Assembly (NCBI GenBank): GCA_977862235.1
Contig: OZ374559.1
Location: 1,302,001-1,366,000 of the forward strand
Length of the DNA stretch: 64,000 bases
Direction of reading: 5' to 3'
From: Dudresnaya verticillata
Lineage: Eukaryota
The number at the start of each line of letters is the position of its first letter. Position 1 is the stretch's first letter. A program made the translations under genes and the position numbers. This document shows, in pieces, positions 10,201 to 52,334 of this stretch. Under the pieces are notes generated by a model, which was given only the letters and a program-made list of their open reading frames with translations, was not told the origin of the DNA and searched no databases.

Positions 10201-10309
10201 ACTATTAATTGAACGGCGGCGGCACACTGTTTGGCCGCCGCGGGCCGCCGCATACAGCGGAGGATACAGTGTCATCCGCGGCTGCCGTGAAGGGGCTGCT
10301 TTCGTGCGA

Positions 10310-10803: not shown

Positions 10804-11454
10804 ATGTCCGAGTCCCCGCTACTTGTCATCTACGGCGCCACGGGCGCCACCGGTACGCATCTGGTGCAGCACGCGCTCGCGGCCGGCCTGCGCGTGCGCG
10901 CCTTTGTGCGCAGCCCAGACAAGCTGCCCGAGGAGGCCAAGTCCAACCCCAGCTTTTCCGTGCACAAGGGCGACCTGTCCGACGCGGCCGCCGTCGCCGC
11001 CGCGCTCGAGGGCGCCACTTATGCCATCTCCGTCGCGGGCAACGCCCGCCTCTCGGCCGACGGCATCATGCAAAAGTTTGTCGCCGCAGTCGTTGACGGC
11101 ATGAAAACTCACAACGTCACCCGCTTCGTCTTCCAGGCGGGTGCCTTCTCCCACCCCCCGGATTCCGAGCTCTCCGGATCTATCAAGATGATGCGCCCGG
11201 TTCTCATCCGTCTCTTCGGTATCAAGCATATGGTTTTGGACAACGACAATGTTATCGACACCCTCAAGGCCGCCAAGGACATTCAGTGGGCTGTCACCAT
11301 GCCGGCTATGATCAAGGAAGGTGAAAGCAAGGGCAAGCTCAAGCACGCTGAAAAGTCTGGCGCTACCGTCATGTTTACCGACCTTGCAGCCTTCAACCTC
11401 GAGGTCGTCCAGTCAGATCAATACAATGGCAAGGGCCTCTTCCCGGGATATTAG
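10804..11454 (+). CDS. NAD(P)-binding Rossmann-fold flavin reductase / biliverdin reductase B-like protein, 216 aa
   Basis: VIYGATGATG nucleotide-binding motif, RAFVRSPDKL, KGDLSD, WAVTMP. Strong Kozak-like context GCCGCCATG. The upstream in-frame extension to 10333 is low-complexity and not accepted. Confidence 0.88.
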   Translation: MSESPLLVIYGATGATGTHLVQHALAAGLRVRAFVRSPDKLPEEAKSNPSFSVHKGDLSDAAAVAAALEGATYAISVAGNARLSADGIMQKFVAAVVDGMKTHNVTRFVFQAGAFSHPPDSELSGSIKMMRPVLIRLFGIKHMVLDNDNVIDTLKAAKDIQWAVTMPAMIKEGESKGKLKHAEKSGATVMFTDLAAFNLEVVQSDQYNGKGLFPGY

Positions 11455-13268: not shown

Positions 13269-13669
13269 TGTAGTAGAATGGCTTGAAGCCAACAGAGACG
13301 GCGACACGGCACGACAGCTGTCCTCAAAGAGCGATCCCACTCACGTGGTTGGTAGCTCGGTAAAGGGGTGGTAGAGACTTGAAAGGGCTTAAAGCCCTAA
13401 CAAAGGAAAAAGGGAAAGCCGAACCCTGCTGAATAGAGCAATTTGTCGTAGACGACAGGGCTTGCAGACGCCCAAAGGGAAGTTGTAGCGGTAGCACCGT
13501 AAGCGTGCAAAAAGGGGAAAACGCAAGGGACAGACCGCTGCCGGTTTAGTGCCGGGCCCCTGCTACTCAGGGGCCCCATAAATACGGCGAGAGCCGAAAA
13601 GGTGCTCCTCGCTCAGTTAGAGCTCTATGGCTAATACTTAGCTAATACTGTACAATACAGGTAGGATAT
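13269..13669 (-). repeat. Element C 3' LTR, piece 1 (split by D)
   Basis: Aligns to 48436-48837. Confidence 0.93.
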
Positions 13670-14520: not shown

Positions 14521-14521
14521 C

Positions 14522-14539
14522 TGGTCTCCCGACCTAGAA
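14522..14539 (+). promoter_or_regulatory. Element D primer-binding site, tRNA-Tyr type
   Basis: TGGTCTCCCGACCTAGAA, 1 nt after the LTR. Its complement gives G72-A73-CCA, the eukaryotic tRNA-Tyr identity set. Confidence 0.85.
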
Positions 14540-14591
14540 CGTGGTCCCGAAGCTTCGCATTTATTCGTAATTCGTTTCTATCCGAGACACG

Positions 14592-22935: not shown

Positions 22936-23686
22936 TGTGGCGCAAATCGCCTTGGCGCCCTGCTGAAGAATTCTTCATAATGCCGCCACCTGCGGCTCAC
23001 GCGACTGTGGACGACGGACGCACAGCGGCCGGTTCCTGCGGATCAACCGCTGTGCGGGTGATTGAGCTCAGAGCCAATTTCTATAATGAGCTCTGGCACC
23101 ACGCGCACGCACCAGCAATGCTAATGGGGAAATGCCTCTGTAAGGCGCCCGGCCTGACAGTACGCGGCGCCCTCTGCCAGCAAGGATGGCCCCGCAACGC
23201 GACAGCGCGTACACGCGCACACGTGCGCCCACTTGGCGCGCACCTTTCAGCCGCACTACCGCTAGGCTGACAGTTGATATTTTTAGATAATTATAGAATT
23301 GCGCGCGCCACGTAATGCCAAGTGGCGCGCCCCCTTCCCTTACTTTAATCCGCCACCAAGGCGCACCCGCCTCCTACATAGTATATTACGGCCCCGAGGT
23401 GCGCCCTCATACAGTAAACGGCTAAGCTTGGGCCCAGCGAGACGTACCCTCCTACCCTATCGACTTCCTCTTTAGGCTGGACTCCAGTACATCCGCTACC
23501 CTTCTTCATCGTACAGAATCCTGTTTTTCCTTCCTTCTAAGGAACCTCCCTTTTCTGTCTTTTGGTGTTTTACAGTCACACCAAGGGGCATTCCCCAGCT
23601 CTACCAACCAGCCCTCGCTACCCACGGGCCCCCGAACAGCCCGAGGTGTATCCTCTGTCGTTTCTTCCTCAGTGGATTGCACCACA
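22936..23686 (+). repeat. Element E 5' LTR (751 bp)
   Basis: About 10 substitutions and 2 indels (23 bp total) versus 34370-35143. Confidence 0.95.
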
Positions 23687-23688
23687 TT

Positions 23689-23706
23689 TGGTGTCCCGAC
23701 CTAGAA
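23689..23706 (+). promoter_or_regulatory. Element E primer-binding site
   Basis: TGGTGTCCCGACCTAGAA, 17/18 identical to the D and G PBS. Confidence 0.85.
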
Positions 23707-23791
23707 GTTCGGAAATTCCGATTAACCACGTTGCCTTCGTTACGGAACTACCGTTCTTCTAGTTCACACCTTTCCGCTGCAGTCATCCGGC

Positions 23792-26190
23792 ATGCCCACC
23801 CGTCGACAGCCGTCATCGGCAAGGTCTGTACCAACGCAGACCGCTGCTAATATGGTGACGCGTGCACGTGCGCAGGCCAGTCCTGCGGTCCAAGCCGCTT
23901 TTTCGGCAATACCCAATGAGGGGGTTTCTCGCGTCCCCCCTCGGTGGAGATCGTACCTCCTGGCCCAGCCGGGACTCTCCCGGCTGGCCAAGACCAAGGC
24001 GGGCAGCCGGCACCTCCGCCGCCGCTGCCCAATCCACCTCCGCCGATTTCGGCATCACTTCCACCTCCGGTGGAGCCACCCACAACCCAAGAGGAAGCAC
24101 CTCGCGTTGCCTTCATACACGGGACCACAATTCCCCGAAGTGCAATTCAAGAGGTTTGCCTCATGGAAGACCAGGCTTTTGCCGCCCGGCTGTCGCGCCA
24201 AATAACGGACAGCCTGGCTTTGGTCAACCAACGTGTTGACGAGGTTGGTGCTCGAATTGACCTCGTCCTGGAGAATCCTCCACAGAACAACCCGGACCTC
24301 GCCGTCGAGGTCCGCACACTTCGCGGAGACGTTAACCGCCTCCTCGAAACCTACGGGGCTACTCCCGCAAGGGGACCCCGTCCGGGTCCCCCAAGCCTAC
24401 CCGCGGAACTTCCGCTCGATGACCGCATTACGCGGATTGCCGACCGCTTGGAGCGACTAGAGGGCATATGCCTCAACGAGCGCGAATTGCCAGTGCATCC
24501 CGATAGCCGGGGAGCGAACCGACGACAAGTCGAATTCGACAATCGCCATCGACAAGGGGACACATACCCTAAGGACAGTTGCCCATACGGGTGTGCGGAC
24601 CACCCGCATGATGACGATTATCGTCAAGAACGCCGAGAAGAACGGCGTCAAAGCCGGCATCGTAACACAACGCGGAATACCCGCAGTCGCCGCCACCATC
24701 TTCACGGCTACGGAAGTTCCTCCAGGTCGGCTTCCGACAATTCGGACTCAGACCGCTCCGATGGAGAAGTTTGGGGAAATCCCCGTCGCGACAATGGTAC
24801 ACGACGCAAGGGGCCGCGGTACAAGCACCTCAAGGAGCTGAAACCAACGAACCCCTTGTACGACCAATTGCTGTCCTACAGGCACTACCGCCTACAGAAT
24901 ACGGAACAATCCCGTACAAGCCGACAGAGCGACAAGATCAAGGACCAGATCAAAAGACTGGAGTTAACCATGAAGGATTGTTCCTTTAATGGGGAAGACC
25001 CCGTGTTGATTTTGGAGTTTCTCTCCAGGCTAGTCGACGAGGCCGACACTCTCGACATGTCGGAAGCGCAGGCGTTCATCGCCTTGCCCTACTTCTTACG
25101 CGGAAATGCCGCTACTCAATTTCGTTCCGTCAAGGCTGCTCCGTCCCGTTCCAATGGAGGAGTATCCTCATGGCCGGAAGCTGTGCAGTATCTTCTGCGA
25201 ACATATGCGACACCGAGCGCACTGCATGAGGCAATCCTCGAGCTCCGTGCCCTCCGGCAGAACGCTGGCGAATCGGAAACACGCTTCGGGATGCGAGTCT
25301 CGAAAGCGTGTAACCGATGTGGCAATGTCCACAAGGAATGGGAGAAGATGACGTACTTCATCGACGGCCTCGACCCGAGCATCCGCTCGCTGGTCGCCCG
25401 GTATCGAGAGGAAACTCCTCGTCATGAATTGTCGTTTGAACGACTAGTGCATTATGCACAAGATGAAGGTGAAGCTCACCGTGGAAGAAGTCGCGCACTA
25501 CGCGCTGGACAAGACCAACTCGCGGGCCGCACCGCAACTACAGGAGGACGTCGTCCAGGACGTGGAAATTCCGCTATGATGGCTGAGTCTTCTATCGAAT
25601 TCCGAGACGGAAGTGGAGTTCCACGTAGGCAGGTGGGCGAGCAGGATGCCGAGGTGCACCTTTTGTACCCAGACGCGGCACTGCTGTCGTCCGACCCACC
25701 TACCGGCTCACAAGTAGAATCCTACGGAAGCGAAGATAACGCGCTTCTCATGCGCACTTGTCAAGTCCCGGCCCCACGCATTCCATACCAGGAGCATTCA
25801 CCTGGTATGACACGCGCACGGCCGGGCTGGCAAGATAGGGGAAATCCCCAAAGAAACTTCGGTCCAAAGCAGACAATCATCTGTCACATTTGCTACAAGC
25901 CTGGGCATGTCTCGCCAGAATGCTTCTTAGCATGGAAGGACTACCTGAGGATTATCCTCAATTATGAATCGCTCAGTGCGGTCGACCGCGAGCGCGTGCC
26001 GGCTACGTCTTACATGAAGGCGAAAGCACAGGCACAATACGACGAGGCAAGTCCTCAAGGTCGACCCCAGGGACCGCCCACTGTGGTACCCCACACTAGC
26101 GAACGCCACCCACAGGCGTTCGCGCCCGTCGGACAGCCCCCTGCGAATGGGCGCGACGGACGAGCGGACATCCGCAATTCGGAAAACTAA
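23792..26190 (+). pseudogene. gag: Element E gag, one frameshift near 23940
   Basis: ATG 23792 frame switches to the 23944..26190 frame. SYRHYRL, FNGEDP, CHICYKPGHVSPEC. Confidence 0.85.
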
Positions 26191-29100
26191 TCAGGGTCAT
26201 ACCCCCTTCGACTGGGGAACGTCAACCGGAAACATTTCCGATCGACGTTCAAGGGTCACGACCCGACAAGAAGGAGGATATAACTCCAAAGACCATACTG
26301 CAGAACCCTGCAAGGACTAATCGGACCTCGGCTTCGCCACCAATGGCTGGATTACGCAGGCCCTGGCACCGGTACCGTCCACCGCATGCACAAGGCGAAC
26401 TGATGATAGCGGCAAAGCGCAACTTTAAAGTCTACGCAGATACGGGTTTACACCCAAGCTACCTATCGCGTAAACTTACTGTGCTAGATACCGGTGCCGG
26501 TCCCAACTTTATCAGAAAATCTGAACTACCACCTCAAGCGGAATCCCGCATTCGAGACGGGGACATCCCCACCATCAGCGACGCCAACAATAGGCCGTTG
26601 CAAACATCCGGCGTCATCGCCTTGGTCGTTCGACTGGGCGACCGCATTGTCAAACATGACTTCATAGTCTGCGAGAGACTCGCCGCCCCGGTCATCCTCG
26701 GATGTGACTTCTGCGATCGTTTCGTAGAAGCCATCTACCCGAGGAGCCGTGAAGTCGAACTCGACAATGGGACTCGCGTGCCGATTACGCGGCGACCATT
26801 GAAGCGACCGCCCACGGCTCCGCCACTACCTGATGATCAGGAGTATGAGCCACTACGAGGCCATACCTCAACAAAAATACGCGTAGCGGGACGAACCGTA
26901 ATCCCAGCCCAAGCGCAAAAGTGGGTTTCAATAACCACAGAACGCGCGGGGCTGATTTGCCTTCAGCCCTACGACAAGCCGTATCACCGGCAAGGAATCA
27001 TCGCAACGAATGGAATAGCCCATGTTGAACCAAAGCGGCCGTTCCGCATTCTAGTCGCGAACTTCACCACGCACGACCAAGTTCTTCCTAAGAACCAGGT
27101 CGTCGCGACCGCCCTCCCGCACCCCACCGCCGTGGTGCCCAGTCCCATCCGGCTGGCGGACGTGCTTGGGTTGGCTGACTTAGCGGACGATACCGCAACA
27201 AGATCCCAACGACTGGGACGACTGTCGAATACGACAAACAAAGGTGACGCTCACGCGAAGACCCTTGAAGCTGAAAACGAACCCCCACCTTCGGTGAACG
27301 ACGTGGATTTATCCCACCTGACGGAGAATCACGCCGAGCGCGTGCGGCAATTTCTTGGTAGGTTTTCTACAATGTGGGATGGTTCACTAGGTGAAATCAC
27401 CACTACGGAACATCACATGGATATGATTCCGGGTACGAGGCCGTTCTCGTGCCCACCCTATCGGGCGGGCCCGAAGCAACGCCAAGTGGAACAAGCGGAA
27501 GTTGACCGCATGCTACGAGCTGGCGTCATAGAACCGGCACAATCTCCCTGGGCGTCTCCAGTTGTTTTGGTGCCTAAAAAGGACGGTACCTTAAGATTCT
27601 GTGTCGATTACCGACGTTTAAATGCCGCGACCGTTCGGGATACATACCCGTTGCCTCGCATCGACGAATGTATCGATTCACTCGGCGAAGCAAACGTCTT
27701 CACTACTAGCTCGATTGCAACTCGGGGTATTGGCAAATCCCCATCAACGGTCGCGATCGTGACAAAAACCACGTTTACATGCCATGCGGGAACCTTCCGC
27801 TACAAGCGAATGCCATTTGGCCTTACCAATGTGCCCGCTACTTTCCAGCGGACCCTGGATATACTGCTCTCAGGTTTCAAGTAGCAGACATGCCTCGTTT
27901 ACTTGGACGATGTTATCATCTACTCCAAGGACGTGGAATCCCACTTTAAGCACGTCGAGCAGATCCTGACTGCATTGGACCAAGCCGGGGTTACCCTCAA
28001 ACTGAAGAAATGTGACTTATTCACAAACACCGTCAACTACTTGGGCCATATCATTCGCCCCGGCGAACTGCGGGTCGACCCAACAGTCACTGCGGCCCTC
28101 CGCAAAGCGAAACACCCACGTACACAAACGGAATTGAGGTCTTTCCTCGGATTGTGTAACGTTTATAGGAGGTTTGTCCCCAATTACTCTCACGTGGCAG
28201 GACCACTGAACCGGCTCCTCAAAAAGGATCACCCGGACAATATTGAGTCGCTCGATGACAACCAAGAGGCCGCGTTCCAGACGCTGATCAAAGCTGTCAC
28301 GGAACCACCGGTACTATCTCTGCCAAAACCTGGCTTGCCTTACTCTGTCGATACCGACGCGTCGAATTACCAGGTCGGCTGTGCCTTATTCCAAACGCAC
28401 ACCGACGGTACGAGGAAACCCCTCGGGTACTGGTCACGTTCTCTGCAAGCCGCCGAAGAGAATTACTCGGTTTCCGAGAAGGAGTGTTTGGCATTGGTGT
28501 GGGCTGTTACCACTTTACGGCCCTACCTACAAATGGAAAAGTTTACCATACACACCGATCACTCCTCCCTTCGTTGGCTAATGGAGATTAACGATCCCTC
28601 CGGGCGCCTTATGCGCTGGCGCCTACGCATGTCGGAATTCGACTTTGACGTCCGCTACAAGAAGGGACGCATCAACACCCAAGCGGACGCCCTTTCGCGT
28701 CTTCAAACGCTTGGCGAAACCCAAGTCGATATCGACGACGAAATTCCGTGTTTCCACGTTGAGGCGGATGCTCTTTCAACCTGCGCCGTTTGCGATAATG
28801 AGGAATTCCTCGAATTGGACAACGAAGTCTCCGACCAACTCCTTCTGGCGAATCCGCCGTCAAACCAACCTGAGCTCCTGCGCCCAATCACGACAGAAGA
28901 GATTCTTCAAACGCCGATGCTTTCTGCACCTCCCTGCGTTCTCGTCTTAACGGGGGGCTTACCTTTCGCGCTGGACGAGACAGGAGTCCTCATTCGCACA
29001 CGAGAGGCACTTCCTCAAATTGTGATACCATTCACTCTTCGCGCACGTGTGCTACATTTGACACACTTCCCAAAACTATCCGGACATCCCGGTGGGCGCA

Positions 29101-31409
29101 AGATGTATTACTCACTCCGTAGATCATTCTACTGGCCTTCCATGGCTGTGGACTGTTACGCCACCGTACGAAACTGCACAACCTGTGCACGCAATCGCGT
29201 TATGCTACGCCGTAATACAAAGCACATGAAGCTGTTTCCAGCAAAAGCACCCCTGGAGTTTGTCTCCATCGACATCTATGGCGAACTGATTCGCACGAAA
29301 CGAGGCAATCGCTTCCTCTTGGTCATCACAGACCGTTTCTCCAAACTCGTTCGGCAGTTCCGATGAAGAAGATTACGGCTGCGAAAGTTGCCGAAGCGTT
29401 CATTACGCATTGGGTCTACGTCTATGGACCCCCGTTGTACCTACTATCGGATAATGGCGGACAATTTGCCGCAAAGTTGTTTCAGTCGTTATGTGGAACG
29501 TTGGGGATCAAAAACCTCTTTACTACAACCTATCACCCCCAATGCAATGGGCAGGTTGAGCGGTTCAACCGCACAATGCGCGCCGCGCTACTGCACTACG
29601 TTGCGGACCACCCGCGTGAATGGGATTTATTCTCAGATACCATCACCTACGCGTACAATACGCAAGTTCATTCTACCACGAACCTGGCCCCCTTCCAGCT
29701 GGTACTTTCCAGACCTCCACCCGCTCTAAGCGTCGAGGCACATCCCTCACTGGAGCCAGTGCCGAGTTCGGCTACATTCCACGCCAAGTGGCAGTCCTGG
29801 CTCACAGGACTACTGTCAACGGCCACGAAAGGCGTTGACCAGACCCAAGCGCGATACAAACGCAATTTAGATAATCGGGTACGTCCCTCACGCGACGTCA
29901 TCGGAGTAGACTCCTACGTCTACGTACGCAAGGAGTACTATGGGAAGGATACCCCAAAACACAAACTGGCGCCTATCGCCGACGGCCCCTATCGCGTGAG
30001 TGACGCAAATGATAAGACGGTCACCGTCGAGAAGGACGGGCCTGAATACGAGCGGATTTCCCGCGACAGAGTCGTGTTGGCACCCGCCCCACCAAGGGAC
30101 GCGGCCAACCAAGCCAACGCCCAAGGGACGGCAGATCCGATAGATGCGGAATTACCGCCAACAAATGATCCCAACAATGATCATACTCAGGCACAGTACC
30201 CCGTCGGAGCTACTGTGTCTCACGGGGAAAATGCCCCAATTACTTTTCATGCTGTGGCACCAGCCATACAACCACGCAACGATCGCGGGTTGGCGGATTT
30301 ACCGCCGCCCGTAGTACCCGGACGCACCGCTGGCGTCCGCACGCGGACTACCGCAATTCACTCACCACCCACCACACGCGCTGCCGCCGCCGCTTCCACT
30401 CCAACTCCTGCTCACGCAAGTTCGGAGCCGGAACCCAGGCCAGCGAACGACGCCCTCGCAAATGGGCACCCCATCGCGGATCAACCGCACGCTGTCCCAG
30501 AAGGCACCAAGGCCGTCAACGGTACAGTAGAGGGAATTCCTCACGATACCTCACCAAAGACACCAGCGATATCGCCCGACGACCACCACTCGGAGGAAAC
30601 TTCTCGTCAACGGCAACTCGCGCAGAATACCGGCATAACCGCCTCCCAGGAGAATACTCCACAAGAAGCAGCAACGCGGGACATAATCCGCAAAGTCTCG
30701 CCTATTCGTCGGATAACGGAAGACCTCGAGCCACACCCATCCGGGACACTACATGCCCATCGCCTGACACCTGCCGCAAACTCGGCTGACATCAATCAGG
30801 TGGATGAGTCACGGCCCCACAGTAAGGCTGAAACCCTACCCGCCGACGGGAAGGGCCCCGCTCCTGAAGGAGAAACACGCGATGTGTCACCAGACGCGTC
30901 TAGAACGCAAGACAACCACAACGAGAATTCTCCACGCCCACCAAGAAAGAGCGTCACGTTCGACGACACCATTAGGGAAATCCCTACGCGGCCTCTCGTG
31001 AGCCGGGGCCTCGGATCAGAAGCGGCAGGCCGCAATCAAGCTGCAACCGTGACCTGGCACGCCAAGCCCCAGACGGAGTCGCCGTATTGCTGCCGTCGCG
31101 CCACGCGCGTCGCAGCTAGGCCCTCAGCAAGAGGATCCACCTCAAGCACCGGCGCCAGATGACACCCTGTCATCAGGGCATCGACACAATGGAGATACTC
31201 CGCCACGTGACGAGTATGTCATCGAAAAAGTGGTGAACCACAGTTATGATAATACAGAGCTTCTGTTCGAAGTGAAATGGTACGGGTACCCGTCATCCCA
31301 AAATACGTGGGAGTCCATACAGCACCTCCCCCGGAGCCAAGTCATCTCCTACTGTAAAAGGAGACGCCTCGGCGTCCCCGCCACTATTACCAAGGCCATG
31401 GTGGGCTAG
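26181..31409 (+). pseudogene. pol: Element E pol, disrupted
   Basis: LDTGAG, YLDD, DTDAS, integrase, chromodomain (31209-31409, DEYVIEKVVNH..KWYGY). Lesions: compensated frameshifts ~27708-27770 and ~28910-28957, TAG at 27882, frameshifts ~29355 and before the chromodomain. Confidence 0.92.
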
Positions 31410-32582
31410 TCCCCAAGACAGCAAGCGTGCAGACGTCTGCTAACTCACAAATGGAGTGGACATACCACATTGAAGAGTCGGGCCCAAGAGTCGATGCTAC
31501 AGTAGTTGGCGCAAGTACAATGGGACTACTGTACACCACGGTATGGCATCTTATTGGTCGGACGAGATATTAATTATCGCAGCGCCAATCGGATATTCCC
31601 TACGCGCGCCCGCTGACCCTAGCGGTCTGCCGCAAGCTATCGCCATCGTCACTCCCGAAGTCGAATGCGACTAAGTCAATAACGCGAGCAAGCACAAAAC
31701 GGAATTCCGTAACTACTGCTCCAACCCATCAATAGCCTTGAGCGCCCGCTCTCCCATGCGAAGGGGAACGCCTCGACTCAGGTTGTACACGAAAAGCGGA
31801 ATTCCGCATCACGGGACACTCGTGTCCAAAAACAACGCAACGCTTCCGACCCCGCTCATATGAGGCGCCCCACAACGCCCTTATCGGCAAACGCAAATGG
31901 GGAACACCCCTGTACGGACTGTAGCACAGCGCAGTCGGCGCAGTACGCCCCGCAGCTGCCGCCAAAGCCGTCCACGGCAGATTCTGCCAAGAGCACTCAC
32001 GCTTATAACGGAACTCCGTAATCTTCGTGCCGATACCGTCACGAATGGGCCCGCAAACCCAAAGGCAATTATGCCTCACATGGGATTCGGTAACCCCTAC
32101 CGTGTATCGTCGATTGCCTCAGGCATCGGCTCCCCCATTTGAAAGGGGATGCCTTCACCTAGGCCGCATACGAAAAGTGGAATGCCACATCATTGGGCGC
32201 ACGTATCGGATCCGACGCGAAGCCCCCTACCTCACTACGATGTGGTGCCCCACGAAATCCCTTTTATGCCCAGAAAATGGGGAACACCCCTACAAAGGCC
32301 ACAGCCACCTACTGTAGCCACCTCCCCGTTGTCTACGGCAGACGCTATAACAGCAATTATGCTGAAACGGAAATCCGTAAACACTGACCACGAGCCACTG
32401 GCGAACTGGTGTACCCCTGACTCAACGATAAGGGGGTACCTCCGCCTGCGTGTGCCCATGCGGCACCTACCGCCGCAAACGTTCGAGACAAGTGGTATTC
32501 CACACAACCGAAAATCCGCGCCACATCCCCCCTCGGCGCTCCTACAGTGGGCAGGCCATTGTTCGCGTGGCATTCCACTTAT

Positions 32583-34184
32583 CTAGACGGGCTGGATCTC
32601 CTCGTCGCTGCCGCGGATGGCAACCTCGGGAATTCCCGTCCTACGCAAATAGCCGATTACGGCAATCCGCTGACTAAAGCTCAACCTCACACGACGAGCG
32701 CGAGGCTGGCCCACGGGGTCGGGCGACGGTGGACGAATGGCTGGCGGCCGAACGATCGGAACGCTCGCAATCACAGGGCCGCTGCCGTCGCCACTTGCCT
32801 CACCCGTTTCGGCCGACGTTCCCGCCGCCCCGCTCGGAGCCTCATCAGCCGGCACTGTCGCAACCGGGCATCCCTCACCAACCGGCGCGTCGACCGTCAT
32901 CGTGTCATCATCGGGGATTTCCCCATTACTGCCCGCGTCGGAGGACCGTTCCTCATAATCCGACTCCGCAATGCCACCCGCCTCGGGGTCCACCAGGTAG
33001 CCTCGCGGCTGACCAGGCGGCATCGAACGCGGGTGGCTACGTAACCAAGCGGCACGGCCCGCAGCGACGAAAGTGCGTGTCCAAGGGTCAAACCATGCCC
33101 AATCGCCGCAAGACGGGTGACGACGCCCAGGCGAGAAATTGGTCGATGAGGAACTCCTCTTGTTGTTGCACAGAGGGACCCTGTGATCGTCTTGGTCCCA
33201 ATCAACCTGGGTATAAAACCCCATCAGTACGCGGAATTCCGCTTCATTGTTAAGTCCGCCGAGGACAATCCTCAAGTCCAACTGGGCAAAGAGCGTCAGG
33301 ACTGTGGGAGATACGTACCACATGCGGTACGTATCATACAATTCCCATAGCCACTGCACAGCCGTTTTCGCCACGAACTCCGTGTAGTACACGGTCCACA
33401 ATCCCGACTGCGGGTAGCCGATAACGGATGACATGGTGTAACTCACCGCGGGGGACAACGCGACGAGGAAACCCTCACAACACTGCACCAAGCCCCACTG
33501 TGGGACGGGCAGCCGCACATAACATCGATCACGATAAGTGCGATGGATTGCGTCGATTTCGACATTCGGGTAGGGCACCAGGAAGCCCAGACGGGAGCGA
33601 GCGCGACGCTCCCAACGAATCTTGTCCCAGTATGCGTTGTTCTCGCGTTTGCGCACAAAGCGGAATTCCGCACGAAGCTGCACGCCAAGTAACAGTGCCG
33701 ACTGGCGCACCCGAGGCTCGACCCCATCCCACGCGTGCGGAATGGGGAGGTTCTCAAGGGCATCAGCATAGGGGATTTCCCCAACGGTGCGGTAGACGCC
33801 AAGGTCAAGCCAGTAACCGTGCGGTATGACCACCCGACAAGGAGTGCGGGAAAGCCGCTGGAAGACCAAGCGGACATACCGCAACCTTGCCTTGCGCATG
33901 TCCTCCCCGCCGTGACGGCGGATCCAATCTGGACGAATGGCGCCATGCCGCCGCCAGTCAGGCGTCCTTAATACGCGCAGGGGAAGCTCCCCAGGAAGGA
34001 AACCGTCTTCCGAAACATACTGCTCGATGAGGGCATGGTTCCCGAAATTATTGTGGAACATCCACGGAGCGTTCGCGAACTCAACCAGGTCGCGCCAAGG
34101 CGTTTTGCCTTCAAACTCGGCCGGCGTTGGATAAGATGCAGATGTCTGCGGGGCGCGCAACAGCACGCGGTCAAGCTCCGCCAT
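32583..34184 (-). CDS. Element E antisense accessory ORF, unknown function (533 aa from ATG 34184; 609 aa from an ATG in the 3' LTR at 34412)
   Basis: Long open frame rich in W/Y/F with globular-looking composition. Colinear similarity to the antisense ORFs of C and G. Confidence 0.85.
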   Translation of the reverse strand: MAELDRVLLRAPQTSASYPTPAEFEGKTPWRDLVEFANAPWMFHNNFGNHALIEQYVSEDGFLPGELPLRVLRTPDWRRHGAIRPDWIRRHGGEDMRKARLRYVRLVFQRLSRTPCRVVIPHGYWLDLGVYRTVGEIPYADALENLPIPHAWDGVEPRVRQSALLLGVQLRAEFRFVRKRENNAYWDKIRWERRARSRLGFLVPYPNVEIDAIHRTYRDRCYVRLPVPQWGLVQCCEGFLVALSPAVSYTMSSVIGYPQSGLWTVYYTEFVAKTAVQWLWELYDTYRMWYVSPTVLTLFAQLDLRIVLGGLNNEAEFRVLMGFYTQVDWDQDDHRVPLCNNKRSSSSTNFSPGRRHPSCGDWAWFDPWTRTFVAAGRAAWLRSHPRSMPPGQPRGYLVDPEAGGIAESDYEERSSDAGSNGEIPDDDTMTVDAPVGEGCPVATVPADEAPSGAAGTSAETGEASGDGSGPVIASVPIVRPPAIRPPSPDPVGQPRARRVRLSFSQRIAVIGYLRRTGIPEVAIRGSDEEIQPV

Positions 34185-34353
34185 TGAAAAGTTCGGCGGT
34201 ATTGTCCGACGTAGGATGCCGCGGAACGGGGGCGCGACGCGGGACTCCGCAAGATAAAACACGCTGCCACCACTGCAGCGCTGGAAACAGACACCGCAGC
34301 TCCAACCTGCGAAGGATAAGTCTGCTCGTGTGGGCTCGTGCGGGTACTCGCCG

Positions 34354-34369
34354 CTTAACGGGGGGGAGA
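34354..34369 (+). promoter_or_regulatory. Element E polypurine tract
   Basis: CTTAACGGGGGGGAGA abutting the TG of the 3' LTR. Confidence 0.85.
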
Positions 34370-35143
34370 TGTGGCGCAAATCACCTTGGCGCCCTGCTGA
34401 AGAATTCTTCATAATGCCGCCACCTGCGGCTCACGCGACTGCGGACGACGGACGCACAGCGGCCGGTTCCTGCGGATCAACCGCTGTGCGGGTGATTGAG
34501 CTCAGAGCCAATTTCTATAATGAGTTCTGGCACCACGCGCACGCACCAGCAATGCTAATGGGGAAATGCCTCTGTAAGGCGCCCGGCTTGACAGTACGCG
34601 GCGCCCTCTGCCAGCAAGGATGGCCCCGCAACGCGACAGCGCGTACACGCGCACACGTGCGCCCACTTGGCGCGCACCTTTCAGCCGCACTACCGCTAGG
34701 CTGACAGTTGATATTTTTAGATAATTATAGAATTGCGCGCGCCACGTAATGCCAAGTGGCGCGCCCTCTTCCCTTACTTTAATCCGCCACCACGGCGCAC
34801 CCGCCTCCTACATAGTATATTAAGGCCCCGAGGTGCGCCCTCATACAGTAAACGGCTAAGCTTGGGCCCAGCGAGACGTACCCTCCTACCCTATCGACTT
34901 CCTCTTTAGGCTGGACTCCAGTACATCCGCTACCCTTCTTCATCGTACAGAGTCCTGTTTTTCCTTTATTTTCTCTTGTTTTTTTCTTCCTTCTAAGGAA
35001 CCTCTTTTTTTCTGTCTTTTGGTGTTTTACAGTCACACCAAGGGGCATTCCCCAGCTCTACCAACCAGCCCTCGCTACCCACGGGCCCCCGAACAGCCCG
35101 AGGTGTATCCTCTGTCGTTTCTTCCTCAGTGGATTGCACCACA
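34370..35143 (+). repeat. Element E 3' LTR (774 bp)
   Basis: Direct repeat of 22936-23686. Confidence 0.95.
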
Positions 35144-36253: not shown

Positions 36254-36258
36254 GATAT

Positions 36259-36583
36259 GTCCTTAGATAGGAATGAGTGGTCAGGCCACAAGGCGAGCGC
36301 GGCGCCACTGTCAGGCGCCGCGCGGCAAACATCCGCCAGCAATGCATGGCGCGATGGTGCGGCCATAGTTAATCCCCAAATGGCACAGTGCCATATCATC
36401 TGGAGCAGTGTGCCTTACAGATCAACTCTGTACACGTGTTGCCTTACAGCGCAGGAGCGTTCCAGCAATGAAATCAATCGGAGCACCAGCCATACCACCC
36501 GGGCAGTTGTGCGCCTGTCATTCCTTACAGAGGACTCGTGTCCACGTGGCTCCTTACAGGGCGTCAACGCCCGTTATACCACA
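36259..36583 (-). repeat. Element C 3' LTR, piece 2
   Basis: Aligns to 48838-49162. Confidence 0.93.
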
Positions 36584-37458: not shown

Positions 37459-39726
37459 ATGGCACCGCCTCGTTTGGCCTATGGGGTCGCTGGCTCGAGT
37501 GCCAATGTGCTAGGCCACTAAGTGGATGCGGCTGGAGTGCCGTTGGCTGTCTCCCAGAGCCGCGACTAGCTTCTGCGTACAGACCTCGCACACTTCAAGG
37601 TGCGCGCGGGGGCCAGTCGCGAAGAGATTCGCCGACGCGGCAGCCGAGTGGCTCAAAGCCGAGTATGGAATACCCTTATGCGGGCTAGGGTGAGCACCCT
37701 TACGGGGACCAACCGGTTCCTCCCCGTGTTGGATGGCGACGCCAATACCCTTCAGTGGGACCTTGCCTACGTGGGGTTTCGGCACGAGGTGCCTTGGAGC
37801 AACAACATAGCTCGGAAGCTAACGTCTGAAGCGGTCTTGTTGGAAGAGATCCATCACGGGGGCGGTTGGGACCTGCGCATGGTGATGCACGAACGGCCAC
37901 TTATTCGCGCCGGCAGGGATAACTTTCCCTATACCCTCGCCCGCATCGTGCGGTGGGATGAGTCTTCAAATCTGAAGAATCTGAAGTATGCCCTGGATAA
38001 CCCCCAAACGGCGAAGCTGTTAGAGCACGCTCGCTTCGAGCGGCGTCAACATCACAAGACGGGCTGCTTGGTTCCCTGCCATTGCCAAGAGGAATCGGCT
38101 TTGAAGCCGGAGTTCTACAATGGGAAGTACCCACTGGTCCCGGATGACCACAAGAATTATGAAGTCTCATATTCCATGCCAGAGGGAGTGCCAACCGTCA
38201 TTGCCTACCTCGGTTTGGAAATGATGGCCAAAGCCATGGACGATAGTGTGCTATGGAGCATCTTCCGACACGAGTGGGTCGTGATCGTTACGCAGACGCT
38301 TGTCTATGAGGCTCGTCGAGGCCTGTTATTCTTCATAAGCCAGCCTCTTCGTGTTGCCATTAGGGCCCTGGGCCCTGCGGGACTATGTTGGAACGAATCC
38401 GATGCCAAGGACTTGGAAGCCCTCTTGCGCTTCGTGGAGTGGATTCGGTGGAGTCAGGTCTCCAAGCGCAACCGTCACCTTCCTGACAATACAGGTCATC
38501 TCACACCGGTTTTCAACCGCGGGGACTGGGTCGACTTTGATCCAGTCAAGTGGCACCCGGTGTTGCCCGAGTATATGGTGCAACCCTAACCGTCTGAGGA
38601 GAGTCCTCTCACTCTTGACGAAGGCATTCGTATGACCGGTTTCACCACTGGTTGGGTTAGTGTCAAATGGCGTGAGCCAGGGCCACAGACTCCGGAAGAT
38701 GTTCCGTCTTTTGACACTACCGTCGACGGTCAGGCCCAGGGGCCTCATGCACCTACTGCATCCGCGTATGCGAAGGCGGATCAGGTTATCCGAGATGTAT
38801 TCAACAGGCGTGGTCTGGCTATTCGCCTCTTTGCTCATTGGGACTTTCGTCACCTGAACATCCACAGCCTCGCGGATTGGGTGGAAGAAGTCATGGTAGA
38901 CTACGAAAGTGAGCGGATGAAGACCCCAGGTCCTGTTGAGCAAATGGAGCGTCTCCGTGCTCACTTCGAGTCTCTTCCGCCCCTTGGCAAACGCGCCCTG
39001 AAGGCCGATCCTGCTCCGCGTCGTGGCATAAGCCATATTGGGATGTCATCAGTTAAGATGGAGTCGACCAGCGTCGCAGGAGTTGATCCTCGTGCTCAAA
39101 CGAGCGAGGACATGGCAGTGGTGCCACGGGAGGAGTCGTCTGCGACGGTGGTGAAGGGCGGGGCTTCGGCTTCGAAGCCGGTCGAGAGAGGTCTTCATCA
39201 GGAGGCGGTCGCCTCGTCGGTGACGCCTCAGGCACCTACCACGGCATTAGCCGGCTTTGCCCCCTCGGGGGAGCTCTTGGGCGAAGACTGCCCACGGACT
39301 GGCTCTCAAGCCATGGTGAAGCACAACGCCCCAGAGTCGGCTTCGGGATCTAAAGCGGTTGCCCCGGGCAACGAGGGCTCAAAGGCCACAACGGTTCATA
39401 CTCAAGAGGGGGCCCAGACCGAGAAGGCTCCAGTTGATAAGGACGACGTGGTCGTGAAGACAGAGTTAGTCGTCAAAGAAGAGGACGAAGTGGATCCCAG
39501 TGTTTCCGCGACGGCTCACGGTGTGGATGCGATGGAAATCGAGCAGCCGATAGCGGGGAGCCAAGGCGATGATAACGTGGAATCACGTCACGAGCGCGGT
39601 AGTCGTCGACTTGGTCGAGGGCGTCGCGTTGTACGCGAGGTCCGTCGCGTAGTGATATATCACTCGACTCCGCAGCCTAACCCTCCGCTTGAGGAGGACG
39701 AGTTCATCGACCTATTGTCTGATTAA
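37459..39726 (+). pseudogene. Element C antisense accessory ORF (~755 codons, one frame, three in-frame stops)
   Basis: ATG 37459 and track ORFs 37600..38589 and 38632..39726 are all in one frame. Stops at 37519, 37567 and 38587. Homologous to the E antisense ORF. Confidence 0.82.
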
Positions 39727-40430
39727 GTGGTTTGCTCAATCACCTTGCTCCCTTATGCGCCTTAGGCGCCCGTCCCGTAATCCGCCTTACTTGGGCAAGA
39801 GCGGCTTATCCGCTAACGTAAAGTAATTCTTCTTGTTGAATCACCTTCGGCTTGGAGCCGACTTGTTAGTAGCTTAGCCCATTGAGTTTTCTGTACGCTC
39901 GGCACCATGACGCAATTGCGTGTTCGTATTCCTTGGAGGAGCCACTGTAGCTCGGTGCCACTGTAGGGGCTCTGTGCCGCGGATATTTCTTCCACGAATT
40001 TTGATTCGTCGTGCAATCCGCCTCTCCCCTTGGGAAGGGCCAATGAGGGGCTGCCATCTCAGAAGGAGCCACTCTACAGTAGGGATGATTCACACTGTAG
40101 AGTTGAACTCTATTTGGCGCCAACGCCTGCCGTGCTGGTCAGTCGGAGCCTATTCAGGGTGAGACCCCTCTTTCTAGGGAGAGGGGTCTCGTGTTCCCTT
40201 CTTCCTTCCGTTTTTAGCGCGGGGGCGAGCGGCGCCGGGTGACTCATAGGTCATGGGACCTCCAAAAAGACGTTGACGTCTTGAGTGATAGAAGGAGTCA
40301 TGGCTTATGAGCCAGGAGGTTGTCTGAGAGGCTCTATGCCTGAGGTCGCTTCTTCCGCGTTTGCGACATGTCACGTTGCCACGTTCCAGAGCTCGTGCCC
40401 TATGGTTCCCACCATTTCCTACACTTTAGC

Positions 40431-40589
40431 CAAGGTCCTGAACCTTCCATATCTTCTATCCATTTCATCTATCCAAGGTCTTGAACCTTCCATATTACAC
40501 ATCCATTTCATCTATCCAAGGTCTTGAACCTTCCATATTATACATCCATTTCATCTATCCAAGGTCTTGAACCTTCCGTATTATACATC
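40431..40589. repeat. Element C tandem repeat, ~3.7 x 43 bp
   Basis: CAAGGTCYTGAACCTTCC units at 40431, 40474, 40517 and 40560. Confidence 0.92.
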
Positions 40590-40739
40590 GCATTGGCGCT
40601 TCCTCTAAGACATCGGTCTTGTGTTACACTACCACTCGCCTCTCGTATCCAGAGGGAGGGGGAGAACGTACGCCATTGGCATTATGAAACAGGGTTTCCT
40701 TCTGGCCACAGGTTGATATACAGACTGGTATCCCAGTAG

Positions 40740-43700
40740 TTAGGCGGGAAGGGGGATTCCCTTGTTACGGTGATACCGCTTAACCAAGTTCTCCGGGAGA
40801 TGCAGTCGTGGTTCCCACGTATCCTGCGAGGCAGGGCACTGGTACCAACGTACTTTGTACATTTCCGACTCTGCGTCGTATCCGACCAACTTGTCATAAA
40901 CAAATTCCCGAGGGGAGCTTTCTTGAAGAATGAGAACTTACGGCGGGGAGCCGTCTCTTCGGCTTCTGTAGCAGTTGGTCCGGCAACAAGCCGAGGAGAA
41001 CTATTATCCCTGGATACCATTGCTGCGCGATTGCCTAATTCAGGCGGTATGAGAACCTCATGAGCGGGTGCGGTTATGGAAACCGGGCCAGCGCCGTTAT
41101 CGATATTATCGTTTTCTCGCCGTGGGGGGGAGACAGTCGGCGCATCTGCGGCCTCGATGACCGTTTCCAATAGCTCACTGCCGGTTTGAGCTGGTGCCCT
41201 TTCGACATCACTGGTATTCGGGGGCGTTGCCCTCGAAGGTGGGTCTGCTGGTTCTGCGTCGTCAGGCCCAGATTCCACGATAGGGGGCACTTGCCCAATA
41301 GCGCCGAACTCATCGTTTGGCGATGGGGCCAATGTTACACGATCCAGAGAGACGAACTCTTTTTCGCCAGCTTTTTGCAACACGACTGTGTGTGTTCCTC
41401 GTTCGAGTACCTTAAAGGGGCCTATCGCTTTTGGAAACAGTTTCCCTTCTCGAGCCACGCCTTTGGCGTCTTTCACCTTCGTTTCTCTTTCGAGGAATAC
41501 CCATTGGCCTGGGCGTATACGTTTTGGTTAGTCAACCGCATATGATTGTTGAAGTTAACTTCATATCGTCGCTGGGCCATCCGCAGGCGTGGTAACGCTG
41601 TATCCATCAGCTTCTCGAGCCGGGTAGTCAGCCGTTTCTTCACGTTAGTTGCTGGAACGTTTTCAACGTCTACTGTCGCGGCTCTTTACATTAGAATGGA
41701 CGTGGGAGGGTTAGATAAAACCAAATCGACGGGCGCGAGACCGGTCCCGCGGTGAACGGTCGTGTTATACGCGTACGTCAAAGCCGACGTGAATTCATCC
41801 CAATCCTTCTGATCATCGGAGATGAAGTGTCTCAGCCCAGCCAACAAGGTTCTATTAAACCTCTCGGTCTGTCCGTTCGTCTGTGGATGGTAAGTAGACG
41901 TGAACAGATTCCTGATCCGAAGTATGCCACAGACGGCTATGAAAAACTTCGATGCGAACTGCGGACCGTTGTCCGACAAAACATAGCGGGGCGGCCCGTA
42001 GGTGTATACCCAATGTTCGCAGAACGCTCTTGCCACGGTATAGGCCGTTACCGTTTTCAACGGGACAGCCCTGGTGATCTTTGAGAAGCGATCGGTTATT
42101 ACGAGAACGTACTCGTTACCCTTACTCGATCGGGGCAGCGGCCCTAGGATGTCAATTCCCACGAATTCTAACGGCATCGTAGCCGGGAACAGCTTCATCT
42201 GCGAGGCATGTTGCCGTAGTTGGACTCGTTCTCGAGCGCATTTGACACAATTTCGAACGGTCGCGTATACTGCGAGAGCCATACCAGGCCAGTAGACCTG
42301 TCGGCGCAAGTTATGATACATTCTGGTGTCACCGGGATGGCCTGCCATCTCAGGATAGTGCACCAGGTGTAGAACCCGTTCTTGAAGGACCCGAGGCATC
42401 ACTACCTGCAAGGTTTTGTCAATATAAGACCGTCGGGCTAAAAGTCCCCTTTCGTCTTCAAGGTAACAGCCTGGCTTTCCAGTCTCGATTGCCAGCTTAA
42501 TGCCCTTGCAGAATGGATCTGTCAATTGCGTGCGAAGTAGTTCTTCCACCGTAATCAGAGATAGACTCTTCTCGTCCACTTCCTTTTCAGCCACCGTGGC
42601 TATCAACTGCTCATCCTCGAATTCAAACTCGGCTAATTGGTCCTCGGGTTCGACTTCCCAAACCTCCAAAGGTCGCGGCTCGGTGTCGGCTCTAGGATTT
42701 CCTTTGGAATGACGATCGGGAAATCCCTCGCGCTCGCTGTCGGCGATAATGAAGCAAGGGATCTCTAGGTCCGGTTCCCAACTGGTGAATCCATAAGTGG
42801 GTAGTCGCGAGACGGCGTCTGCTATCTGGTTCTTATTTCCCTTACGGTATTGAACCGTGAAGTCGTACTCCAAGAGTCGCAAGCGCCAGCGCGCTAGACG
42901 ACCCGATGCGTCAGTCATACTTATCATCCACTTGAGCGCTTGGTGGTCGGTATAGAGGTCAAAATGCGACCTTTCCAAATACGGTCGGAGCATTTGTGTG
43001 GTCCAGACTACAGCGAGACACTCCTTTTCTCCAACGGAATAATTCCGCTCAGCCTGGGTAAGGCCTCGGCTCCAGAAACCGATCGGGTGGCGTGTGCCAT
43101 CTGGCTCCATCTGCATAAGGGCACACCCTATCTGATAATCACACGCGTCGGTATCCACCGAGAGAGGTCTATCTTCCTTAGGAAGCCGGAGGATCGGTGG
43201 CGCTATGAGTGCTTTCTTCAACAGGGCGAAGGCTTCGCGTTGCCGTTCATCAAACGGGGGTAAGTTGAACCCGACATCCTTCTGTAGAAGCCTATTAAGC
43301 GGAGACGCAACCCTAGCGAAATTCGGTACGAAGCGTCTATAGACGTTACACAATCCAATAAACGACCTTAGTTGTGTCTGAGTCGTAGGCTCCTTGAAAC
43401 CTTCGATAGCTTGGGTGTTTTTGGTAGCCACCTCCAGCAGCCCTGGTCGGATCACATGTCCGAGGTAGTCCACACTCTTTGTAAAGAAATTACATTTCTT
43501 GAGCTTGAGAGATACGCCTGCTTGCTTCAATACGGAGAGTATCTCTTGAACGTGGCCTATGTGTTCGTCGACACTCTTGGAAAAGACTATGATGTCATCC
43601 AAATAGACGAGGCAGGATTTCCATCTGTATCCCGATAATAGAATATCAACCGTTCGTTGAAACGTCGCCGGTGCGTTGCACAGTCCGAATGGCATTCGGC

Positions 43701-48028: not shown

Positions 48029-48416
48029 TATTGCCACTCTTGTTCTCGGCTCTGCCGATGAGGTAGCGGGGACTTCTTCCCAAGCTTCTCGACGGTCCAG
48101 AACCGTAAGATTACACGTGTTTTCTCAGGTTGCACGGAAAACCTGTTGAAGCGGGCTCAACCCGGGCGTCAATCCGCCGTTGAGGGACACTTCTGGGGAC
48201 GGTTTTAAAACCGTTAAATGTAGTTTGCTTGCTCACAAGATTTGACGTCACTCCGGAGCTTAATATAAAGCGTAGAAACCGTCGACAATTAGACGACTAG
48301 GGTTTTACCCTTCGAAGGAAGATTCTTGAAACTTCAACGGACAGCGTCCTGTCTTGAATATCTTGACTCGACCCGTCGAGGGTAAGGTAGAAAAAGGGTC
48401 CGACCCTGAGAACTTG

Positions 48417-48434
48417 TTCTAGGTCGGCAGACCA
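48417..48434 (-). promoter_or_regulatory. Element C primer-binding site
   Basis: Minus strand TGGTCTGCCGACCTAGAA, 17/18 identical to the D and G PBS. Confidence 0.85.
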
Positions 48435-48435
48435 C

Positions 48436-49162
48436 TGTAGTAGAATGGCTTTGAAGCCAACAGAGACGGCGACACGGCACGACAGCTGTCCTCAAAGAGC
48501 GATCCCACTCGCGTGGTTGGTAGCTTGGTAAAGGGGTGGTAGAGACTTGAAAGGGCTTAAAGCCCTAACGAAGGAAAAAGGGAAAGGCGAACCCCGCTGA
48601 ATAGAGCAATTCGTCGTAGACGACAGGGCTTGTAGACGCCCAAAGGGAAGTTGTAGCGGTAGCACCGTAAGCGTGCAAAAAGGGGAAAACCCAAGGCACA
48701 GACCGCTGCCGGTTTAGTGCCGGGCCCCTGCTACTTAGGGGCCCCATAAATACGGCGAGAGCCGAAAAGGTGCTCCTCGCTCAGTTAGAGCTCTATGGCT
48801 AATACTTAGCTAATACTGTACAATACAGGTAGGATATGTCCTTAGATAGGAATGAGTGGTCAGGCCACAAGGCGAGCGCGGCGCCACTGTCAGGCGCCGC
48901 GCTGCAAACATCCGCCAGCAATGCATGGCGCGATGGTGCGGCCATAGTTAATCCCCAAAAGGCACAGTGCCATATCATCTGGAGCAGTGTGCCTTACAGA
49001 TCAGCTCTGTACACATGTTGCCTTACAGCGCAGGAGCGTTCCAGCAATGAAATCAATCGGAGCACCAGCCATACCACCCGGGCAGTTGTGCGCCTGTCAT
49101 TCCTTACAGAGGACTCGTGTCCACGTGGCTCCTTACAGGGCGTCAACGCCCGTTATACCACA
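48436..49162 (-). repeat. Element C 5' LTR (727 bp)
   Basis: About 14 substitutions and 1 indel versus the rejoined 3' LTR. Confidence 0.94.
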
Positions 49163-49239
49163 ACCGATGCCCGTTTAGTTCGGGTCCCCTGATACTCAGG
49201 GCCCAATAAATACGGCGGGAAGCCGAAAATGCTACCCAC

Positions 49240-49913: not shown

Positions 49914-50269
49914 CCCACTCTAAGTTAGAGTTATAATACTGACAGTTACCTAATACTGTACACTACATGGTGGATTACAATCCAATCATAGGAACGAGTC
50001 GTAGTACCACTACGAGGTACGGGCGCGCAGCTGTGTGGCGCGAAATGCCAAAAATATGGGTGACCAGGATTAAGCAACCAATGATACTCATCCATCTCAA
50101 CCATCGCACCCTCGGGCGCCTCATGCCTTACAAGCGTCGTCCGTACACGTGTGTGTGCTTACAGCGCTCGGGCGTTCATTATTCCACAGTGGGTGGTAGC
50201 TGTGATAGAGCGGTAGTATCGGCAGTGTGCGCCGTCGACGGTGGGGGAACTACGGCTTTGAAGCCTTAT

Positions 50270-51392
50270 TGTGGCAGAATGCATGCTGTCAGCAGAAGGG
50301 CTTACAGGAGCGCACTCCTTTTTGCGGGACAGACGGTCCCTTGATCGGGACAGCTGTCCTTTCATCGCTGCACACGTCGACAACACGTGTGTACACGTGG
50401 CCAACACATGGCCTACACGCGGCCTTACAGCTGTACACGTGGCTTACACGTGGCATTATGAGGACGCCAATTGGACGATGCATATTGGCTGATTTATGAC
50501 GCGACGCTGCGCTCCTACTCATGGACGAGGAGCGCCCCCGCGCGCGGGGTATCGACAATGCAGCCGACAGCCCGGCTTGAGCACCGGTCTTGTCGTAAAA
50601 CAGGCGTTGACGCCCTGTAAGGAGCCATGTGGACACGAGTCCTCTGTAAGGAATCGCCGGCGCACAACCGCCCGGGTGATATGGCTGGCTTACAGATTGA
50701 TTTAATTGCGGAAGCGCTCCTGCGCTGTAAGGCAACGCGAGTGCAGCTTTAATCAGTCAGGAACACAGCTTCATGTAGTGCCAGGGGGTCCCCCTTTTTC
50801 GCTTTCAAGCGGGTTGATATGCCGCGTCTACCGACGGATGGCCGCCAACGGCGCGTTCAACCCGCCCGCGGCGCAAACACGTCACCGACGCATACGGCTT
50901 GCCACCTGGGCCAGAACGGCTCACTTCGGGTGCAGACTGCACACCTGAACCCGGGGTACTGTACGGCGCCACGCGTGCGCGCGTGGCGCAGTGGCGGGAA
51001 CGTTCGCTGTAAGTGTGGCCCGGATCCGGATCCAATCGGGATCCCACATCGGGATCAGACATCGGGATTAAGAGGTGTAAGGCACGCGCCTGTAAGCCTG
51101 GCGCGTTCGCATTGCTGGCCCGAATCCGGATTGGATCGGGACTAGCGCGGATCGAGATCGCACACACCAGGAGGCGCGTGCGGCTGTAAGGAAGTACATC
51201 CACGTGTAGGTGTAAGGACTTGAGTGGGGAAGCTACGCGTGATCTGTCAGGAGCGTGGCTGCATGACGGACGGATCTGTCAGACGCGCCTCGGGACAACA
51301 CGTGTCCCGAGTTCCCGCGCGGCGCCCGCGCACGCGTCACCGCCGTTAGGTAGTTCTATTCTTAGTTGATCCGTCCCAGACGTTGAGGTAAA
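50270..51392 (+). mobile_element. LTR-like sequence H/I (one or two truncated LTRs, candidate starts 50270 and 50591)
   Basis: TGTGGCAGAAT at 50270. From 50591 (TGTCGTAAAACAGGCGTTGACG) ~145 bp match the U3 start of the C LTR. Far ends and TSDs are outside the window. Confidence 0.55.
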
Positions 51393-52189: not shown

Positions 52190-52207
52190 TGGTCTCCCGA
52201 CCTAGAA
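52190..52207 (+). promoter_or_regulatory. Element G primer-binding site
   Basis: TGGTCTCCCGACCTAGAA, identical to D. Confidence 0.87.
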
Positions 52208-52334
52208 TCCCACCCGATTGGAGCTTTCTCCGTCCATTCGGGTTCTCCCGCTTTTCTTCCTGCCCCGCCGACCTTTCCGATTGGTCGGCCGCTTCGTTCT
52301 GCTTCCAAGGGCTCTCCCAAAACGCACGCGCGTT

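Follow-up and report, generated by a model that had tools for sequence, protein, structure and literature searches.

The 64-kb window, by which we mean the whole stretch of DNA that was analysed, holds nested Ty3/gypsy elements, with element E inserted inside D and D inside C, plus a further element, G. Element C (13269-49162, minus strand, TSD ACCGA) has its 5' LTR at 48436-49162, and its 3' LTR is split in two by D (13269-13669 and 36254-36583, minus strand). Element D (13670-36253, plus strand, TSD GATAT) has LTRs that are 99.8% alike. Element E (22936-35143, plus strand, TSD CACCG) lies within the region of D between pol and the 3' LTR; its own LTRs are at 22936-23686 (5') and 34370-35143 (3'), with a polypurine tract just 5' of the latter. 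TG...CA LTR ends, a 5-bp TSD, a PBS and a polypurine tract are all present in C, D and E. Element G, with gag-pol on the plus strand, starts before 52185 and runs beyond the window end, so that its LTR evidence consists of the 5' LTR end and PBS only. All four elements encode gag, reverse transcriptase, RNase H, integrase and a C-terminal chromodomain, the last scoring above the Pfam cut-off in every one of the four. The chromodomain lies at 31215-31337 (plus strand) in E, where a frameshift has put it out of the integrase frame, at 40767-40871 (minus strand) in C and at 60831-60980 (plus strand) in G. C, E and G, which carry the gene discussed below, and also D, are Ty3/gypsy LTR retrotransposons with a chromodomain. 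The pol of G is 62-70% identical to that of E, 52% to that of C and 48-52% to that of D. No similarity links the LTRs of C, D and E to one another, and the E LTR has no match anywhere in G, in line with the initial annotation, which had described the carriers' LTRs as dissimilar.

Several other features of the locus deserve mention. D inserted into the C 3' LTR, a region expected to carry the antisense promoter of C, and E inserted into a 171-bp tandem array of D and split it. The PBS is near-identical in all four elements, reading TGGT(C/G)TCCCGACCTAGAA, with the variant TGGTCTGCCGACCTAGAA in C (14521-14540, 23688-23707, 48416-48435 on the minus strand and 52190-52208), and it differs from the tRNA-Met type that is usual in plant chromoviruses. 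Long low-complexity linkers of about 400-600 residues join the integrase core to the chromodomain in E (29900-31200) and G (59000-60800). Diverged fragments of C-like LTRs, one of them inverted, occur on both sides of C (12806-13197, 49159-49229, 49920-49975 and 50591-50773), which suggests repeated insertion of the C family at this locus. Two host genes, for a NOT3-like CCR4-NOT subunit (1914-3893, plus strand) and an NAD(P)-binding protein (10291-11454, plus strand), are present as single open frames.

Three of the four elements, E, C and G, carry a homologous open reading frame, here called ORF3, that is antisense to gag-pol and occupies the interval between the chromodomain-ending pol and the 3' LTR (in G, the window edge), whereas D has no ORF3 match. 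An ORF in this interval and in reverse orientation belongs to the class aORF-3R if it has at least 250 codons, as ORF3 does. E ORF3 (32583-34412, minus strand) contains no internal stop and would encode 609 amino acids from the ATG at 34412 or 533 amino acids from the ATG at 34184. The frame spans 615 codons from stop to stop (32583-34430), a length not attained when the region was simulated 500 times with a Markov model (maximum 436). The upstream ATG lies within the 3' LTR and has an A at -3, and the downstream ATG is just outside the LTR. We prefer ATG 34184 as the start because GC content by codon position becomes coding-like there (0.62/0.48/0.68, vs 0.57/0.59/0.65 in the 76 codons upstream, which is not coding-like) and because the alignment of relatives to E begins about residue 10 after this ATG. 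The core of C is comparable (0.61/0.42/0.67), and the values of both cores resemble those of pol. C ORF3 (37459-39726, plus strand) is decayed, with in-frame stops at 37519, 37567 and 38587, and yet none of 500 simulations reached the length of its longest uninterrupted piece (378 codons). The initial annotation had reported a long antisense frame past pol in all three elements. This is correct for each, except that the end proposed for G, 63076, is a stop of another frame. The 3' part of G ORF3 that is visible in frame runs from the window end to a stop at 63174 (63174-64000, minus strand), and it encodes the last part of the core together with a complete copy of the tail motif described below (about 63624-63743). 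An extension to 63076, where the acidic end is encoded, would require a frameshift, and the G copy appears to be frameshifted.

Homology among the three frames had been proposed from blocks shared between them, colinear in E and C. Direct comparison gives a poor account of this relationship, since E and C can be aligned only marginally by BLASTP (E=0.005, 21% identity over 194 residues) and the best E-G alignment is not significant (E=0.37). However, a profile HMM made from E and 152 relatives, with C and G left out, joins all three. Among 1,348 stop-to-stop frames of the window it matches only E, C (2.8e-31) and G (8.4e-9), and a 9-sequence HH-suite profile is concordant with it on C and G. 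Because both C and G are matched by a profile from which they were absent, we regard the homology of E, C and G as real, and it is this result rather than the pairwise blocks that establishes it. The C match is confined to profile positions 193-374 (38011-38550, plus strand), and the G match covers the end of the core and the tail. The first two of the proposed blocks fall in the N-terminal half of C, which is marginal: equal scores were obtained in 14 of 500 shuffles, although a stop in this half sits at a conserved Trp position.

Beyond the window, the family is large. A HMMER scan with E recovered 410 clusters, defined at 50% identity, that scored E<=0.001, and 57 of these reached E<=1e-30; the clusters considered individually are the best 150 of the 410. 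A word-indexed search with E yielded five proteins, three of them named as the red alga Agarophyton chilense, and these three were the only named entries among 25 relatives looked up, the others being ENA, Logan or JGI entries. On this basis the host of the elements is probably a red alga as well. The same kind of search yielded nothing among 2,968 candidates with C alone and, with the deep alignment, only two proteins, both already in the set. No usable match was obtained from the ESM Atlas with E or with relative P0021, and no genomic context of relatives was found in metagenome contigs, prokaryote genomes or viral contigs. The relatives come in multi-copy sets with many truncated members (one cluster has 19), and for this reason we infer that those outside the window are also borne by mobile elements.

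Given that D manages without the gene and that the C copy carries three stops, ORF3 might be seen as a passenger, either a captured host gene or a remnant of another mobile element, that brings the retrotransposon no benefit. We consider this very unlikely. The gene has kept its slot and orientation across three elements even though their ORF3 proteins are only about 20% identical and the pol sequences of E and C only 52-70% identical to that of G. Furthermore, E ORF3 has remained open whereas E pol is broken in several places, and the multi-copy, often truncated sets of relatives also speak against a passenger. That ORF3 is a real and selected gene of these elements is, in our judgement, very likely. 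The initial annotation had called it an old, selected third gene. Its age and conservation are supported by the 410 clusters, the pol-like codon GC and a confidently modelled fold.

The protein consists of two parts, the first of which is a core of about 390 amino acids (32985-34184 in E, minus strand) that is rich in Arg, Trp and Tyr. Fifty-nine core positions are at least 75% conserved, and these are mainly Pro, Leu, Arg, Gly, Glu, Trp and Tyr; they include eight Arg and nine Asp or Glu residues and no Cys or His. Arg makes up 10.6% of the cores; even so, positive and negative charges nearly balance (median net charge +1, with 35 of 68 cores positive), and words resembling nuclear localization signals are not enriched (7 vs 6 in shuffled sequences). 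The AlphaFold2 model of the core, based on 143 sequences, is mainly helical and confident (pLDDT 93.8, pTM 0.91), and the C-terminal half modelled alone (100 sequences) reaches pLDDT 95.2. The halves of the core show no sign of internal duplication when compared with each other (E=0.48). In agreement with the initial annotation, which recognised no domain, no Pfam family scored above cut-off in the ORF3 frames of E, C and G or in up to 79 relatives scanned. Structure searches with the Trp-rich core likewise matched no known fold: Foldseek returned nothing from the PDB at E<=0.001 and nothing from BFVD, and the best VIA result over 48,161 chains had a Z of 2.3 (rmsd 3.6, 90 residues aligned). 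For the C-terminal half alone, Foldseek again returned nothing, and the best VIA result had a Z of 2.4 (rmsd 4.2, 86 aligned). It is important to note that the typical best VIA Z in searches that lack a clear match is 7-8, and that the absence of a match is no proof of a new fold. The best PDB match of the family profile, UHRF1 (E=0.11 over 45 residues), was rejected as a chance similarity.

Two rival explanations can be weighed against these properties of the core. The first is that ORF3 is an enzyme, of a kind not yet described, that removes a silencing mark from DNA, RNA or protein. Six acidic or basic core residues (D127, R132, E136, E192, R193 and E234) are each more than 90% conserved, and extra reading frames of other retrotransposons are reported to encode enzymes (PMC9289625). 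However, conserved Cys and His are absent and no known catalytic motif is present, three of the six (D127, R132 and E136) belong to the N-terminal half, where the C match is marginal, and the conserved charged residues could simply form structural salt bridges. We therefore hold an enzymatic function to be decidedly unlikely. The second is an env-like or cell-to-cell movement protein, as the slot between pol and the 3' LTR would allow, but the antisense orientation and the lack of conserved Cys argue against it. Over 19-residue stretches, hydropathy peaks at 1.34 in E and does not exceed 1.86 in ten relatives, so that none of the eleven proteins has a transmembrane segment, and this explanation can be considered extremely improbable.

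The second part of the protein is a low-complexity tail (32583-32984 in E, minus strand). Tails of the family are rich in Pro, Ser, Gly and Ala, and 56 of 68 have a net negative charge. The initial annotation had assigned each element a disordered acidic tail, a description that suits most of the family but not the in-frame tail of G, which has 25 Lys and Arg residues vs 27 Asp and Glu and is not net acidic. After the disordered linker, many tails carry a 35-residue motif with a helix-loop-helix pattern and an L-x-x-x-G-hydrophobic turn. Of 68 tails, 45 contain this two-helix motif with a score of at least 12 bits, compared with none of 68 shuffled ones, and it was found in 11 of 34 tails that had been left out of motif building. 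E seems to end in a shortened version (1.9 bits), its motif apparently having been cut short. In P0050, P0077, P0089 and P0101 the helical module is apparently doubled or longer. In form, at about 35 residues, the motif resembles the two-helix HeH, LEM, Ish1 and SAP domains. When 35 of the motifs were compared with Pfam, the best scores came from Ish1 (E=0.035) and HeH/LEM (E=0.13), each for a single motif, and all 35 were below threshold. A profile of the motif gave weak and mixed matches in the PDB, including pyruvate-dehydrogenase subunit-binding domains (E=0.05-0.13).

Some tails contain other short motifs. A hydrophobic motif that we presume to be SUMO-interacting (SIM-like) is joined to a run of Ser and acidic residues in five of 70 tails, from two subgroups about 30% identical (mean 0.23 in shuffles, with none of 500 reaching five), a result to be read as applying to a minority of members that excludes E and G and to patterns that were written after the sequences had been inspected. 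C ORF3 ends in FIDLL. SUMO acceptor sites are not enriched (four of 70 tails, matched by 155 of 500 shuffles). A word resembling D/E-x-x-Y-E-E is present in six of the 70 tails (P0002, P0046, P0051, P0052, P0065 and P0093), at or near the C-terminus in four, and a similar word occurs in the other-frame end of G.

The tail raises the possibility that ORF3 is an integration or nuclear-entry cofactor that binds the pre-integration complex and uses its two-helix motif to tether it to chromatin or the nuclear envelope, alongside the integrase chromodomain. Chromodomain integrases are present in all carriers, the elements are nested in one another's LTR and 3' regions, and the weak Ish1 and HeH/LEM scores point the same way. 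However, those scores are far under threshold, and D has integrated without the gene, as indicated by its perfect TSDs and near-identical LTRs, although the protein might have been supplied in trans. A component of the particle would also have no need of an independent antisense promoter. On balance, we find this role possible yet unlikely.

The DNA beside ORF3 adds two further features. In E, C and G alike, the spacer that separates the stop codons of pol and ORF3 holds repeats that are specific to the element. In E this is a non-coding array of near-palindromic motifs (31697-32578), GGNANNCC / GGNNTNCC, for example GGAATTCC. The 16 dyad motifs of the E spacer compare with a mean of 2.7 and were equalled in none of 1,000 shuffles (likewise none of 1,000 in a test of all spaced dyads), bearing in mind that the pattern was picked after inspection and that its density is 13.6 per kb in the spacer vs 7.5 per kb within ORF3 itself. 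The C spacer holds 3.8 copies of a 43-bp tandem repeat (40430-40594) and the G spacer a 45/89-bp tandem array (61552-61885). The link between repeats and ORF3 is weakened by D, which has its 171-bp tandem array but no ORF3. Moreover, the spacer arrays need not be targets of ORF3, because tandem arrays are common in the same region of Retand elements according to the parts covered of PMC11963269. The other feature is a TATA-like word in the E 3' LTR (34724-34729), the only one on the minus strand and a candidate antisense promoter. It lies back to back with a plus-strand TATA-like word, 87 bases apart (34729 and 34816), and no out-of-frame ATG intervenes between it and ORF3. This arrangement suggests a candidate divergent promoter.

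Another rival explanation is an RNA-level role, in which ORF3 would suppress RNA silencing, take part in RNA export or packaging, or hold down copy number, and the antisense RNA may itself regulate the element. Both roles have been proposed for the aORF-3R gene class (PMC7264820), and the core is soluble and rich in Arg and aromatic residues. E ORF3 ends 1.2 kb short of pol, so that pairing between the genomic RNA and a read-through antisense RNA is conceivable. Given the conservation at the protein level over 410 clusters, a role of the RNA alone is excluded. No RNA-binding family is recognised by Pfam, and the SIM-like and two-helix tail motifs are better suited to chromatin, leading us to judge an RNA-level function unlikely.

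The position of ORF3 is shared with known systems. Antisense genes between pol and the 3' LTR define the aORF-3R or eORF-3'R class, which includes maize Grande gene23, rice RIRE2, the TRP28 ORFs of Retand and PvRetro13 and which, like ORF3, occurs in several related families with tandem arrays in the same region (PMC7264820 and the parts covered of PMC11963269). The initial annotation had compared ORF3 with such genes in Tat-lineage elements. This was right as to the slot but too narrow, since PvRetro13 and the fungal element Boty (gene brtn) use it as well (PMC7264820). Grande, RIRE2 and Retand are chromodomain-less Tat-lineage elements of land plants, whereas the carriers of ORF3 have chromodomains and seem to be red-algal. 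Transposase_28 (PF04195), found in the Retand TRP28 ORFs, has no match in the window ORFs or in about 72-79 relatives; this absence, together with the chromodomains of the carriers, rules out a TRP28 identity. The brtn gene of Boty-like Ty3/gypsy elements in Botrytis cinerea and Sclerotinia shows that the antisense slot is used outside plants (PMC7264820 and the parts covered of PMC8365987). The likeness to ORF3 concerns the slot, and brtn is fungal. Boty itself is probably a chromovirus. Plant eORFs fall into 314 unrelated groups according to Neumann 2019, whereas ORF3 forms one family of 410 clusters. The parts covered of PMC6317226 make no mention of Rhodophyta or a red alga, and literature searches that excluded most subscription journals, Repbase and genome-paper supplements brought up no description of this family or of any additional ORF in the LTR elements of red algae. 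What is new is the protein family and the lineage of its host rather than the slot, and the family seems to be undescribed.

We believe that the ORF3 protein is probably nuclear and has chromatin as its target. A more specific proposal, which we advance tentatively, is that it might be a trans-acting regulator specific to its own retrotransposon family, whose transcriptional activity it would sustain. The logic would be that of VANC, a protein of Arabidopsis VANDAL DNA transposons that removes DNA methylation (parts covered of PMC5735166). The likeness is a functional analogy only, namely that both are accessory proteins encoded by a transposon next to tandem repeats specific to its family; VANC belongs to DNA transposons, and no sequence similarity between it and ORF3 was detected. 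A promoter in the 3' LTR would produce an antisense mRNA independently of the gag-pol RNA, and the Arg- and aromatic-rich core would then recognise its own family at the level of DNA or chromatin, the spacer repeats being a plausible site. The disordered acidic tail, through its two-helix motif and in some members its SUMO-interaction-like motifs, might recruit or block host chromatin factors and thereby relieve silencing in trans. We favour such a regulator on the basis of the ordered core joined to an acidic tail with interaction motifs, the repeat arrays, a candidate promoter separate from that of gag-pol and the analogy with Grande gene23 and VANC. A bolder version, rather unlikely in its entirety, would make ORF3 an independently evolved retrotransposon counterpart of VANC, a sequence-specific protein of new fold that reads its own motif array and disarms repression with a SUMO-binding or two-helix tail in hundreds of families.

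Most known antisense extra genes of LTR retrotransposons are poorly conserved. The ORF3 family, by comparison, is deep, its core of 390 residues is confidently modelled and candidate target motifs are adjacent to the gene, so that structure, localisation and DNA binding are directly testable. At minimum, the orphan 'genes' of red-algal annotations include a large class that can be identified as transposon cargo. If it is true that ORF3 counters silencing, the family could help to explain the expansion of retrotransposons in multicellular red algae, and it might also provide a new chromatin tool.
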